Program-made: the position numbers and the translations under genes | In this document: positions 28,708 through 39,719 of the stretch, piece after piece | Layout of the letters: every line of letters starts with the position of its first letter | Numbering within the stretch: position 1 is the stretch's first letter | From: an uncultured Bacilli bacterium | GTDB lineage: Bacteria; Bacillota_I; Bacilli_A; RF39; UBA660 | Assembly: GCA_934086955.1 (NCBI GenBank) | Contig: CAKOIN010000004.1 | Coordinates: 46,719 to 110,718, forward strand | Direction: 5' to 3' | DNA length: 64,000 nt | The notes under the pieces: model-generated | The model's database searches: none | Seen by the model: the letters and a program-made list of their open reading frames with translations, nothing else | Told to the model about the DNA's origin: nothing

Positions 28708-29253
28708 CTACTCCTTATTCTTAATCTTCTTTACATCTTTTATTATATCTCTTATTTCATAAAAATAAATATACCCTAATGGAATAATTATAATAAGAAC
28801 AAATCCTATTTTAGTATCCATTATCTTTTCAATTAAACTAAAAAACTTAAATTTATAAATATATTTACCTAATATTTCTTCTTCATAAACAGCTGGATCT
28901 TCACTTATATTTTGTATACCTTTTGTATAAAATATATTTCTTCCATTTTCAAGTTTTATACCAACTATTTTATGAGTAACTATTTTTCCTTTTAAATTAC
29001 CACTAGATCCCTTAAAAGTAATAATATCTCCTACTTTATATGAATCAGTACTTCTTTCTTGTACAAGAATTACATCACCTTTATGTAAAACAGGTTCCAT
29101 ACTTTTAGTAATAATAGAATATGTTCTAAAACCAAAAACACTAGGATTATTTGGAAATACTTTTTGATATACAGTAAATATAGCAAATAATATCAATAAT
29201 ACTAATATAATTATTTTTAAAATATCAAATATTTTTTTTATTACCTTTTTCAT
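28708..29253 (-). CDS. sipW: Signal peptidase I, ER/archaeal type (SipW-like)
   Basis: 'IITKSMEPVLHKGDVILV' has the S-M-E-P Ser box with a His; N-terminal TM and a C-terminal TM; adjacent to 'YAWF'-type substrates. Confidence 0.7.
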   Translation of the reverse strand: MKKVIKKIFDILKIIILVLLILFAIFTVYQKVFPNNPSVFGFRTYSIITKSMEPVLHKGDVILVQERSTDSYKVGDIITFKGSSGNLKGKIVTHKIVGIKLENGRNIFYTKGIQNISEDPAVYEEEILGKYIYKFKFFSLIEKIMDTKIGFVLIIIIPLGYIYFYEIRDIIKDVKKIKNKE

Positions 29254-29269
29254 ATGAATCCTTTCTAAA

Positions 29270-29845
29270 TTATGATGGTTTAATAAACATAATTTTATTT
29301 ATTCTTAAATTTGTATTTTGAAGTGCATTTGGAGCATCTATATCAATTTCAATGTTCCAATAATAATTAAGTGTTGATTCTGCTGGTATAGTAACACTAT
29401 TAGCAAAATCAAAGAAATATCTATCATCATCAGTATTATGTTCTAACCTATCAGACAATTTAAAATTATCAATAATAGGATTAGTAATACCAATTTTTAA
29501 ATAATTTTTAAGTAAATTTATATTTCCTGTTATCTCAGTAAATACAATTTTTACTCTTGCAGGTGTTGGATTAATGTTAGTAAGTTCAAATCTATATCTT
29601 TGTATTTTACCTGGATACATAAGATCAAGATTAAGAAGTTCATCATCTGAATATTGACCTTGTAAAACATATTTATTATCAATAAGAGCATATAACTTAA
29701 CTTGTATATCACTATCAGTTATATAAAAATCTCTATTGTATTCTACATTTTCTCCAAGTGATGGTTCTGTTTGCATCCAAGCATAAGCACTAACTGTAAG
29801 TAATATTATAATTACTATACTTAATAATATTGATATCTTTTTCAT
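29270..29845 (-). CDS. TasA/camelysin-like secreted protein with SipW-cognate signal peptide
   Basis: 'LLTVSAYAWMQTEPSLG' matches the SipW-cognate class signal; GAGGTGA RBS. Confidence 0.6.
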   Translation of the reverse strand: MKKISILLSIVIIILLTVSAYAWMQTEPSLGENVEYNRDFYITDSDIQVKLYALIDNKYVLQGQYSDDELLNLDLMYPGKIQRYRFELTNINPTPARVKIVFTEITGNINLLKNYLKIGITNPIIDNFKLSDRLEHNTDDDRYFFDFANSVTIPAESTLNYYWNIEIDIDAPNALQNTNLRINKIMFIKPS

Positions 29846-29853
29846 GCTTCACC

Positions 29854-30903
29854 TCACTGGAAAGTTACAAGAGTTGCATAACTCTCTGGTGAAACACCAA
29901 CTACTTCTTTAATTCTAACATATACTGATTGATATCCAGTAAATTGTTGAGTACTACTTGTAACAGGAGTCCATATTGTAGTAGCAGTATTTGTTGTAGC
30001 CCATTCCATTGTAGTATCAAGACCAGTTATTGTATAATTAGAATTTCCAACTAATGTAGGAGCCGCTAATAACTCATTAGCACTACCAAACTTAAATAAT
30101 ACATTTAATATAGTAGATGCAAGAGCATTAGTACAATCTATATCCCCACCTTCTAACCATATTTTTAAGTTAATAGCCATTCTACTATTAGCTGGAATAG
30201 TAAACAATACTTTATTAGTATCAATCGTATCACTATCACTACTTCCTCTACCACCATCTCTATAACTAAAGTTTCTAACAAGTTGTGTTGTATAAAAACT
30301 ACTAGGTATATTACCAAACTTAAATTTACCAGTTGTTATAATTGCTTTAGTAGTATATTCATCAGTAATACCATTTTCAGGAGTTTTACCAAATATTATA
30401 GTTGATGTTGTATTATCACTAGTTGGATAAGTAATAGCTATTCTAAGAGCATCATATGCAGGACCAGTAACAGCTGTATCTTTATGAATATAAACATGTT
30501 TTGGATAATCTTCTGTTTGTAAATAGAAATTAAAATCTATATAACCATTTTCAATCATTTGAGATACACTACCATTAACATCAAGAAGTTTTATAAATTC
30601 TGGATCGGTTAAAGTTAAACCTTCATTAAAGTCAATTGTATAAAAATTAACCGCATCCACACTTGAAACTTGTTTTAATTCAAATTCATCAAAATTTTCA
30701 AGAACACTATTTAAACTAACAGTATTTCTAGCTGCACTATCAGGTTGTAACTTAATAACAAGACCTTCAGCAGCTGAAACTTGAATATTAGATAAACTTA
30801 TAGATGGATTAGATCTATCTTGAAACCAAGCATATGAACTAATGATAAGAATAACAGTAAAACCAATCAATAATATAATTTTAAAAAATGTCTTATTACT
30901 CAT
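29854..30903 (-). CDS. TasA-like secreted protein (SipW-cognate signal; C-terminal 'IWLEGGDIDC' motif)
   Basis: 'IISSYAWFQDRSNPS'. The ORF-track start is GTG; I used the ATG (MSNKTFF) with an AGGTGA RBS. Confidence 0.65.
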   Translation of the reverse strand: MSNKTFFKIILLIGFTVILIISSYAWFQDRSNPSISLSNIQVSAAEGLVIKLQPDSAARNTVSLNSVLENFDEFELKQVSSVDAVNFYTIDFNEGLTLTDPEFIKLLDVNGSVSQMIENGYIDFNFYLQTEDYPKHVYIHKDTAVTGPAYDALRIAITYPTSDNTTSTIIFGKTPENGITDEYTTKAIITTGKFKFGNIPSSFYTTQLVRNFSYRDGGRGSSDSDTIDTNKVLFTIPANSRMAINLKIWLEGGDIDCTNALASTILNVLFKFGSANELLAAPTLVGNSNYTITGLDTTMEWATTNTATTIWTPVTSSTQQFTGYQSVYVRIKEVVGVSPESYATLVTFQ

Positions 30904-37885: not shown

Positions 37886-37903
37886 ATACATTTCCTTTCA
37901 TAA

Positions 37904-38596
37904 TTATTCACTTTTCTCAGTGATTATCATTGACATCTTCATTTCACCGCCAATAATATCATCGATGCATTCCGGGTCTTTTCCTTCTAACCAAACAAGA
38001 ATAGTGTACCTATCAATTTTTCCAGGTTCTAGCCCATTTCTTTCTTGTTCCATAATTAAATGATTTGATAAAAACGCAATTGTATTAGGTTCTTCTTTTC
38101 CGTCCTTTGCTTTTTTTGCATAGACTTTCTTTTCGCCATTAGTAAACACTGCAACCCTAACAGCATCATCAACATTCTTTATAACAGATTCAATAACGAT
38201 TTTATTTTTGTAATCAACTTTATTTTCTCCATCATTTTTTATAAAGAATGTATAAGCAATATAGTTATCAGCACTATTATCGCCTTCTTTTTGTATTACT
38301 TCGTCTATAGGTATCCACGACTCAGTAATATTATCCATATACTCTAAACCTTTAACCTTTATTTCAACTGTTTCAGCTGAAAATTCAGAATCAGAAGACA
38401 AAAGTATATGTCTTTCAGCTTTCAAATTTTTGTCTAATTTAATGGTAAAATAACCATTACTATTAATAACATATAAAATTAAATATAATATTGAAAAGAA
38501 TAATAATAGAACAAGTAAACTCATTTTAACAATTCTAGATAAGAGACTTCTTTTATATATTTTTTCAGCTTTTACCTTTATAGTTCCGTCTTTCAT
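37904..38596 (-). CDS. TM-anchored paralog of the TasA-like family (lacks the YAWF motif but has the C-terminal 'LVWLEGKDPEC' motif)
   Basis: AGGTGA RBS; TM 'MSLLVLLLFFSILYLILYV'; C-terminal motif shared with 36797, 30916 and 29854. Confidence 0.5.
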   Translation of the reverse strand: MKDGTIKVKAEKIYKRSLLSRIVKMSLLVLLLFFSILYLILYVINSNGYFTIKLDKNLKAERHILLSSDSEFSAETVEIKVKGLEYMDNITESWIPIDEVIQKEGDNSADNYIAYTFFIKNDGENKVDYKNKIVIESVIKNVDDAVRVAVFTNGEKKVYAKKAKDGKEEPNTIAFLSNHLIMEQERNGLEPGKIDRYTILVWLEGKDPECIDDIIGGEMKMSMIITEKSE

Positions 38597-38603
38597 GAAT
38601 CAC

Positions 38604-39719
38604 CTACTTATAAACCTTATAAGCATTACCTTCATTTTCTATTATCGTAACTCCAATACTCTTAGAAAATTCAATAGTACTGTTATAATTAGACACCTTA
38701 TCATGTTTAAAATAAACATAATCAACAACATTCCTTAGTTTATAACTTTTGCTTTCAACAGTGTTAAAATCATATACACCTAACTTAAATCCAAAATTTT
38801 TAAGTTCTTTAACCTTAACATCTCTACTTATAAATTCCTTATATGGAACTAAAAATACAATGTTTTTAATAGTTTTAGGTTCAACAATATTACACATTTT
38901 AGTAACATTAGTCATAAGCCTAAAGAAGTTCTCTGGAAGCTTTATAAAATACAATGTGTTAGCCTTATTATCAAAATAATTTTTAATAATTTCAAAAGAT
39001 GTATGTTCTGCTTCAATATACTTAAAATCTTCAGCAAAACCATATTTAACAAAAGCATCAAAAGCATGAGATTCATCTATTCCTTCAAAATATTTTTTAT
39101 CGAAATTAACTTTAGATATAAATAGATTAGTATTATCTATTTTACCCATATAATCATAATAAACTTTTAAAGGACTTTTAGAAAGAGTATTTAAACATTT
39201 CTTACTAGCATTAACACTTTTAGTAATGTTCTTCATAATCTTCAAATAATTATCATTAAATAACTTTTTAGATTCATCATCAAATAGATAATCATTTTTC
39301 TTTTCTAATATCTTAATAGCAGTATAATAATCAACCTTAGGAACAGTAAGTGAATTAGTTAATTCTTCTAACATAATACATAAAAGCATCATTTTAGCAA
39401 CTAAATAATACCATTCAAATTCCACAGGATTATTAATAATATCTAAATAATCAATAACAGTTTCAAAAAATATTAAAAGCATTCTTTTTATTACGATATT
39501 ATCAACATCATACTTATTAAAAATATCCTCATACTCATTTAAAGCGGTAGTTATATCCCTTTTACCAAATATAAAATATTCATAAAATTTATCAACACAA
39601 ATTTCAAAATCTTCTATATTCTTAGGATAGGGTTTTAATTCCTTAGAAATAAGTACATCTACATTTTTAAGAATGCATTTAGCTTTTTGTTTCAAAAAAA
39701 CATTTGCTAAGCACCTCAT
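38604..39719 (-). CDS. Cytoplasmic protein with a C-terminal degenerate EAL-like domain (candidate c-di-GMP-related regulator)
   Basis: 'GFKLGVYDFNTVESKSYKLRNVVDYVYFKHD' aligns to the EAL pattern G..laiDDFGtGySsl..L..l.vD.lKiD, and 'IGVTIIENEG' to 'vvAEGVE'; strong AAGGAGG RBS. Confidence 0.4.
   Translation of the reverse strand: MRCLANVFLKQKAKCILKNVDVLISKELKPYPKNIEDFEICVDKFYEYFIFGKRDITTALNEYEDIFNKYDVDNIVIKRMLLIFFETVIDYLDIINNPVEFEWYYLVAKMMLLCIMLEELTNSLTVPKVDYYTAIKILEKKNDYLFDDESKKLFNDNYLKIMKNITKSVNASKKCLNTLSKSPLKVYYDYMGKIDNTNLFISKVNFDKKYFEGIDESHAFDAFVKYGFAEDFKYIEAEHTSFEIIKNYFDNKANTLYFIKLPENFFRLMTNVTKMCNIVEPKTIKNIVFLVPYKEFISRDVKVKELKNFGFKLGVYDFNTVESKSYKLRNVVDYVYFKHDKVSNYNSTIEFSKSIGVTIIENEGNAYKVYK

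Follow-up and report, generated by a model that had tools for sequence, protein, structure and literature searches.

A McrB-like GTPase module linked to SipW-type signal peptidases in uncultured gut Bacilli: a candidate cell-surface apparatus

An AT-rich stretch of 64,000 nucleotides (about 25% GC) from an uncultured Bacilli bacterium (RF39; contig CAKOIN010000004.1, positions 46,719 to 110,718), referred to here as the window, carries a gene cluster in which SipW-type signal peptidases and exported proteins lie together with a membrane-anchored McrB-like GTPase, named B, and its McrC-like partner, named C. We infer that this cluster is chromosomal and lineage-wide and probably encodes an apparatus which builds a fibre or adhesin assembly on the cell surface and is controlled or powered by the GTPase module. 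The exported genes are consistently linked to three proteins of the cytoplasmic face: B, C and an EAL-like protein, called x371 in the window and represented by the u1 family elsewhere. An earlier note on this DNA had proposed a larger surface-fibre apparatus that includes an NTPase. Comparative genomics supports an NTPase-containing SipW surface apparatus, while the fibre as its product stays a presumption.

Organisation of the locus

The cluster is a minus-strand run of 12 open reading frames (ORFs) from position 39719 down to 21370, all of which were found where the earlier note had placed them. The gaps between them, described there as mostly tiny, do measure 2-17 nt in most cases, but the pilin gene is set off on its two sides by longer ones of 90 and 100 nt. 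A contig of "MAG: Mycoplasmatota bacterium SUG767" (MAG, metagenome-assembled genome) is 95-98% identical to the window at the DNA level. In transcription order, the genes are as follows (TM, transmembrane segment; HMM, hidden Markov model; LRR, leucine-rich repeat).

38604..39719, minus strand: x371, 371 amino acids; cytoplasmic protein with an HD-GYP-like helical N-terminal half and a degenerate EAL-fold C-terminal domain
37904..38596, minus strand: T230, 230 amino acids; short paralogue of the T family, anchored by an N-terminal TM (T-family HMM, 1e-49)
36797..37891, minus strand: T364, 364 amino acids; candidate major secreted β-sandwich subunit
36224..36778, minus strand: SipW1, 184 amino acids; ER/archaeal-type signal peptidase I (TIGR02228, 85.9 bits; Peptidase_S26, 5e-8)
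34886..36133, minus strand: pilin-DUF285, 415 amino acids; prepilin N-terminus with DUF285/PARCEL repeats (N_methyl, 8e-6; DUF285, 2.9e-37)
33205..34785, minus strand: B, 526 amino acids; TM-anchored McrB-like GTPase (McrB in the PDB, 2e-5; PADLOC PDC-M26A, 9e-38)
32075..33187, minus strand: C, 370 amino acids; McrC-like partner (DUF2357, 1e-12)
30916..32070, minus strand: T384, 384 amino acids; T-family paralogue with the motif FSYAWF (T-family HMM, 3e-86)
29854..30912, minus strand: T352, 352 amino acids; T-family paralogue with the motif SSYAWF (T-family HMM, 5e-77)
29270..29845, minus strand: T191, 191 amino acids; small secreted protein with the motif SAYAWM, related to the u2 family
28708..29253, minus strand: SipW2, 181 amino acids; second ER/archaeal-type signal peptidase I (TIGR02228, 101.3 bits; Peptidase_S26, 27.4 bits)
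21370..28701, minus strand: LRR giant, 2443 amino acids; BspA-type surface protein (LRR_5, 5.5e-92)

Conservation and gene order

Relatives of B are widespread. More than 8000 were found in the databases, the best 120 of which are full-length and mostly at least 64% identical, and a scan with one genome per species recovered a relative in at least 475 species representatives. Synteny was analysed in 80 fetched loci, covering relatives of B down to about 58% identity. All of these loci come from MAGs of uncultured gut or rumen "Bacilli/Tenericutes/Mycoplasmatota", including CAG:567, CAG:628 and CAG:884, which we take to be RF39-type lineages.

A SipW-type gene lies 3' of the B-C pair in 77 of the 78 evaluable loci, each from a different species, and the lone exception is a contig that ends early. 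The SipW gene follows B-C immediately in 68 loci and comes after T384-T352-T191 in nine. A SipW-type gene is also present upstream of B-C in 52 of 59 loci. The linkage is kept in two different gene orders. The first, x371-T230-T364-SipW-B-C-T384-T352-T191-SipW-giant, is that of the window's clade. The second, found in most other loci, reads [giant]-SipW-u0-(SipW)-u4-u3-u1-B-C-SipW-u2-u0(reverse)-(T230-like-T364-like), where u0 to u4 are further protein families. In most of the loci with handles L012 to L080, the reverse-strand gene of this order encodes a secreted u0-family protein of about 200 amino acids that lies directly after SipW-u2 and is convergent with the operon; a forward-strand u0 paralogue lies upstream in the same loci.

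B is the best-conserved gene of the cluster. Among relatives outside the closest clade (rows under 80%), B is 58-71% identical to its counterpart in the window, C 31-50%, T364 35-50% (60% in the closest species, L003) and x371/u1 11-20%. No relative was found on viral contigs, and plasmids yielded no full-length relative, only relatives of the GTPase domain with at most 41% identity. Conservation of this kind fits housekeeping machinery better than it fits defence. The possibility that the NTPase and its partner form a sporadically inserted defence cassette, which the earlier note had named as the result that would speak against its proposal, is ruled out by synteny and conservation; the pair is integral to the SipW locus.

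The GTPase B and its McrC-like partner

The description of B as a TM-anchored McrB-like NTPase of 526 amino acids holds. It has a strong TM at about residues 55-80, and its GTPase core matches the structures of E. coli McrB. From its N-terminus, the protein has a conserved segment and a single TM, then a putative coiled coil and an acidic linker ahead of the GTPase domain. The N-terminal 200 residues consist of an amphipathic segment, the TM, the putative coiled coil (heptad-like helix at about residues 85-122) and the acidic linker, and hold no DNA-binding specificity domain of the McrB type. Directly after the TM stands the basic sequence RKYLRFRK, which by the positive-inside rule predicts an N-out/C-in topology, the reverse of the orientation of FtsB. 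Models of the FtsL type match this N-terminal region weakly (TIGR02209, 0.0097; FtsL or FtsL_2 in 8 of 28 members).

The GTPase core is near-invariant across 81 sequences. It contains a Walker A motif (GxxGxGKT), a Walker B motif (DEMN) and a signature region, GTINNDDST (NxD, then D), which is invariant in all 81. At 38-47% identity, the relatives of B are of two kinds, long GTPases with coiled coils that carry N[KR]DES and TM-anchored forms that carry NNDDS, and the GTPase domain is matched by PADLOC PDC-M26A far better than by E. coli McrB (9e-38 versus 2e-5). Judged by motif and similarity, and with NNDD also readable as NxxD, B appears to belong among the NxD coiled-coil GTPases. One homologue of 646 amino acids (P0035) was considered as a new architecture and rejected, since a stretch of about 125 residues is repeated exactly within it, most likely as an assembly artefact.

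C sits beside B in every locus. The partner of 370 amino acids anticipated in the earlier note was recognised as McrC-like through DUF2357, the N-terminal domain of McrC (48 bits, above the cutoff). Its C-terminal part is helical and variable, and the last 120 residues are rich in K and E. No nuclease family matches C at E<0.1, an alignment of 28 sequences has no invariant residue past position 246, acidic residues and lysine included, and the family profile retrieved only spurious matches to designed proteins among PDB sequences. As far as the sequence allows, C appears to lack a detectable PD-(D/E)xK nuclease, although it may retain an inactivated form of the fold.

A second B-C pair was observed in locus L006 (83-2433), about 7 kb upstream of the main one. 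Its B has 412 amino acids, being clipped by the start of the contig, and its C has 364.

The EAL-like protein

The protein encoded first in the window, x371, and the u1 family of the other loci are related over 312 columns in profile-profile comparison (probability 98.8%, E 5e-17), and in 64 of 73 loci the gene immediately upstream of B encodes a member of this combined family. The EAL-like protein is a core partner of the system. Neither x371 (Pfam, NCBIfam) nor the u1 members (Pfam) match a known family, and the x371 profile found only spurious designed-protein matches among PDB sequences. The AlphaFold2 model of x371 is confident (pLDDT, predicted local distance difference test, 88.9; predicted template modelling score, pTM, 0.82) and has an EAL fold, that is, a TIM-barrel-like one, so that the earlier call of a degenerate EAL regulator is borne out at the level of the fold. 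Neither the EAL catalytic residues nor a match to the Pfam EAL family is present in x371, and an alignment of 30 x371/u1 sequences contains no invariant or near-invariant column; the EAL-fold domain is therefore degenerate and non-catalytic.

Signal peptidases, exported proteins and the giant adhesin

The earlier note had counted two SipW genes. Both pass TIGR02228 (cutoff 51.85 bits), but the window carries a third, SipW3 (86.3 bits; SipW family HMM, 2e-46), and the Ser (SMEP) and His (THR) motifs are readable in the SipW sequences. Since none of the window's SipW proteins reaches the equivalog cutoff for B. subtilis SipW (190 bits), they are SipW-like peptidases rather than orthologues. As many as four or five SipW paralogues occur in a single locus.

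The substrates of these peptidases may be recognisable by a common signal. In T364, T384, T352 and T191, the TM ends in the motif [ST][YF][AS]W[FLM], for example SYAWF, and the same motif is present in 53 of 67 u2 proteins and in 67 of 108 T-family ORFs. Small residues occupy positions -3 and -1, as in a type I signal-peptidase site, and cleavage is accordingly predicted at the alanine of the motif. In T364, the N-terminus exposed by this cleavage would read WFT.N..., its fifth residue being an invariant Asn.

Five paralogous TasA-like subunits had been proposed for this locus. Iterative HMM searches with T230, T364, T384 and T352 converge on one family, which shares the C-terminal motif W-[VIL]-E-G-x-D-x-[DE]-C, whereas T191 belongs to another. 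T364 consists of a K-rich cytoplasmic tail, a TM, the motif SYA|WF and, at the C-terminus, the motif W.EGQD.DC. T384 has an additional C-terminal immunoglobulin-like module, although the matches of C-terminal models are weak. T230, a candidate for a membrane-retained base subunit, has a TM at about residues 16-48 and no AWF motif; in 39 loci it and an orthologue of T364 occur as a pair. T191 is present in nine loci of the window's clade and resembles the u2 family (hhalign probability 92%), which comes after SipW in most loci outside that clade. The families u0, u2 and u4 are mutually related (94-98%), and u3 matches u4 (94.5%) and, weakly, u0 and u2 (47-67%).

The term TasA-like itself found no support in sequence and is no more than suggested by the fold. 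Neither the T proteins (T230, T364, T384, T352), T191 nor u0-u4 have a match in Pfam, NCBIfam or the PDB sequences, and the profile of the T364 family found nothing among PDB sequences either. The hhalign probability between the exported families and TasA is below 2%, in a comparison of low sensitivity because TasA entered as a single-sequence template (checked against 8aur). The structural model of T364 (pLDDT 80.6) shows a β-sandwich in which residues 57-71 are disordered; compared with the PDB by Foldseek, it gave nothing below E 0.1.

The call of a 2443-amino-acid LRR protein stands, the repeats being of the BspA type (LRR_5). Its N-terminus consists of a cytoplasmic tail of about 125 amino acids, a TM and the motif DAYSWF, and its signal is of the class seen in the T proteins. 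In all nine loci of the window's clade, a giant ORF with a motif of this class lies 3' of the last SipW gene.

SipW3 lies apart from the main run, together with two small ORFs upstream of it.

44157..46061, minus strand: candidate satellite group, comprising SipW3 (44157-44771) and two small signal-motif proteins (44782-45339, SYAYY; 45468-46061, TFAWF)

Plus-strand genes for a transporter and a collagen-like protein stand between this group and x371, and the group may be a split-off part or satellite of the main system. T364 and the ORF at 45468-46061 are the richest in A/G/T/S and in GC, a composition that would be expected of abundant structural proteins.

On the plus strand at 42396-44140, a gene for a protein with collagen triple-helix repeats precedes one for a GT2 glycosyltransferase that contains TPR repeats, a pair that recalls BclA-type glycosylated surface filaments. 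Beside the SipW3 group, a full-length YfhO-family membrane protein is encoded at 46149-48653 on the plus strand (5.5e-153).

A strain-variable pilin-DUF285 gene

The fusion of a pilin-like N-terminus to DUF285 is genuine, as TIGR02532 is also matched above its cutoff, but the gene is not a core component of the apparatus, as had been supposed; it is an accessory insert that varies between strains. A deletion of about 1.08 kb (window 34944-36026 versus L001 9842-9859) has cut it to an ORF of 34 codons in L001, the sister strain and GTDB species representative, with the junction between similar short A/T-rich sequences (ATTAAATT.TTTAA). The interval between SipW and B is free of genes in L003-L005, and a prepilin-type ORF was found in only one of the 80 loci. 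The protein was rejected as a core subunit on these grounds. Two putative signals, both from a consensus scan, lie on the 5' side of the gene.

36191..36207, minus strand: terminator-like hairpin 3' of SipW1 (consensus match only)
36183-36156, minus strand: promoter-like site between the hairpin and the pilin gene (consensus match only)

Antisense to pilin-DUF285 and the start of B runs an ORF of 171 amino acids (34776-35291, plus strand), which is of low complexity, rich in L and I, and probably not a gene. A second prepilin-type protein (N_methyl and DUF6273; 12690-13808), a sortase-domain protein (11013-12620) and a secreted protein of 1377 amino acids (5461-9594) are encoded elsewhere on the minus strand of the window. 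Prepilin-like N-termini joined to surface domains are apparently a recurring type of anchor in this genome.

Relation to known systems

The association between McrBC homologues and signal peptidases has been named before. Under the name CoCoPALM, three sentences describe an NxD McrB-like GTPase fused to an FtsB-like TM and a coiled coil, its association with the signal-peptidase family, and a McrC (DUF2357) homologue that usually has a coiled coil; the clade was treated as CoCoNuT-like and its analysis deferred (Bell et al., eLife 2024). The name is absent from the text supplements of that paper, and no later paper using it was found in the literature searched. The locus had been called previously uncharacterised, which is right in so far as the association was never analysed further and wrong in so far as it was named in 2024.

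We file the present locus as a member of CoCoPALM. B resembles the described GTPase in being of the NxD type with an N-terminal TM and a putative coiled coil, and the linkage to signal peptidases is clear; the FtsL matches are weak, and the heptad score of C does not discriminate. The degenerate EAL/HD-GYP-like partner, the T and u families with their AWF motif, the giant adhesins and the near-universal presence in a gut lineage go beyond the published text. New here are the EAL-like core partner, the [ST][YF]AW[FLM] signal motif that is also present on the giant adhesin, and the breadth of the system in the lineage.

E. coli McrB and McrC share with B and C the GTPase core and DUF2357, respectively. 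In contrast to them, the present pair has a TM and a coiled coil in place of the DNA-binding domain, has no PD-(D/E)xK nuclease, and is conserved in a lineage rather than sporadic.

The exported part of the locus resembles tapA-sipW-tasA of B. subtilis and sipW-bsaA-bsaB-bsaC of C. perfringens, where a SipW-type peptidase likewise stands beside secreted β-sandwich subunits. Donor-strand exchange and an Asn-Lys isopeptide bond underlie the polymerisation of BsaA; its donor strand is formed by residues 28-38, which follow the SipW-specific signal, and the intermolecular bond is made by N35 (PMC11580942). The N-terminus of the mature subunit is a flexible strand in the TasA and BsaA operons, and T364 has its invariant Asn five residues past the predicted cleavage site. 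This parallel between BsaA and T364 is no more than suggestive. The export of BsaA and BsaC is aided by type IV pilus proteins, and prepilin-type genes are present in the window. Similarity to the archaeal thread (Saci_0406, PDB 7pnb), chaperone-usher pilins and CanX cannulae scores below usual significance, with empty Foldseek results and no sequence relationship.

LapD-LapG-LapA and FimX are comparable by analogy only, as in the present system a McrB-like GTPase takes the place of the transducer and a signal peptidase that of the protease. LapD and FimX are receptors for cyclic di-GMP, whereas no conserved residues for binding this nucleotide are evident in x371.

Proposed mechanism and alternative explanations

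The following sequence of events would account for the locus. The SipW paralogues would cleave precursors with the AWF motif after the alanine and expose a flexible N-terminal strand (WFT.N...). Donor-strand exchange would next join the T subunits into polymers, in the manner of TasA, BsaA and archaeal threads; the conserved WFT.N motif and the stretch modelled as disordered in T364 are hints in this direction. T230 and the small subunits may serve as base or adaptor, and the giant adhesin may be displayed on or beside the fibre. The most speculative part concerns the cytoplasmic module. B may form a hexamer with the DUF2357 domain of C in its pore, as in McrBC, but no longer act on nucleic acid, and B-C could, with the EAL-like protein, serve at the membrane as an inside-out switch or motor that is driven by GTP. 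By way of its TM and conserved extracytoplasmic N-terminal segment, B might gate or power SipW processing and the release or polymerisation of the signal-anchored precursors. This role would be analogous to the control that LapD exerts over the cleavage of the adhesin LapA by LapG, or FimX over pilus assembly.

Several observations weigh against a GTPase-driven fibre. The model-based and sequence comparisons suggest that homology to TasA is absent by sequence and below threshold by fold, and the exported families have no sequence homology to TasA or camelysin, so the fibre is still a matter of inference. To our knowledge, SipW/TasA, BsaA and chaperone-usher fibres need no NTPase, which leaves the role of the GTPase without precedent. 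The nearest sequence relatives of B are candidate defence GTPases, namely PDC-M26A and plasmid-borne proteins. The lack of conserved residues in the EAL-like protein makes ligand binding doubtful, and a crude heptad score for C does not discriminate on coiled coils.

Three other explanations were considered, all of which agree less well with synteny, conservation and the private signal motif than a surface apparatus with a GTPase module does. SipW may act as a general signal peptidase in envelope housekeeping, with B-C as an FtsB/FtsL-like GTPase module for division or bulk secretion and the β-sandwich proteins and adhesins as mere clients. The very high conservation of B, its near-universal presence in the lineage and the weak FtsL/FtsL_2 matches at its N-terminus are consistent with this, as are the genomes of these MAGs, which are presumably small and reduced, as in RF39-type lineages. 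It is nevertheless unlikely. A single locus can hold as many as four or five SipW paralogues, placed among proteins with a private signal motif, and dedicated synteny, gene by gene, is what specialised sorting systems typically show; moreover, the topology of B is opposite to that of FtsB, and no division genes were seen in the loci.

Defence against phages or plasmids, slightly less probable still, would see the cluster as a CoCoNuT-like McrBC derivative that detects infection through its membrane anchor and surface structure, the latter perhaps a phage receptor or sensor, and triggers a response. The PDC-M26A match, the 38-47% identity of B to CoCoNuT-type coiled-coil GTPases, the GTPase-domain relatives on plasmids and the CoCoNuT-like placement of the clade by Bell et al. 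all point that way, though all of this concerns the sequence neighbours of B. However, neither a nuclease nor any other effector was detected in C or its neighbours, PADLOC matches none of C, x371, SipW and T364, and no viral or full-length plasmid copies were found. An apparently single-copy system that keeps its synteny in at least 475 species, and whose B is conserved above all its neighbours, is the reverse of patchy, fast-evolving defence islands. Least of all, and very improbably, a SipW/secreted-protein operon and a McrBC-like pair would be unrelated modules that came to lie side by side by chance. The terminator-like and promoter-like sites between SipW1 and the downstream genes would allow two transcription units, and the window strain tolerates an inserted gene between the modules, but the adjacency is found in every evaluable locus even though B diverges to 58% identity, it survives two gene orders, and Bell et al. 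found the same association independently.

Biological significance

With due caution, CoCoPALM could be a new prokaryotic machine for surface filaments and adhesins, in which, at the cytoplasmic face, a domesticated McrBC GTPase adjusted by a dead EAL/HD-GYP-like sensor provides the energy or a checkpoint for signal-peptidase-coupled donor-strand polymerisation and for the display of the giant adhesins; we regard this as a tentative proposal, somewhat less likely to be right than wrong. If true, it would be the first NTP-dependent member of the otherwise energy-free fibres of the TasA and chaperone-usher-like type, and a core trait of a major uncultured lineage of the human gut. If the GTPase drives or gates assembly, the motor of a restriction enzyme would have been recruited into cell-surface biogenesis. 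The system occurs in hundreds of uncultured, presumably genome-reduced species of gut and rumen Bacilli/"Tenericutes" and is linked to giant BspA-LRR adhesins. This breadth and this link make it a strong candidate for the attachment of these bacteria to their hosts or to partner cells.

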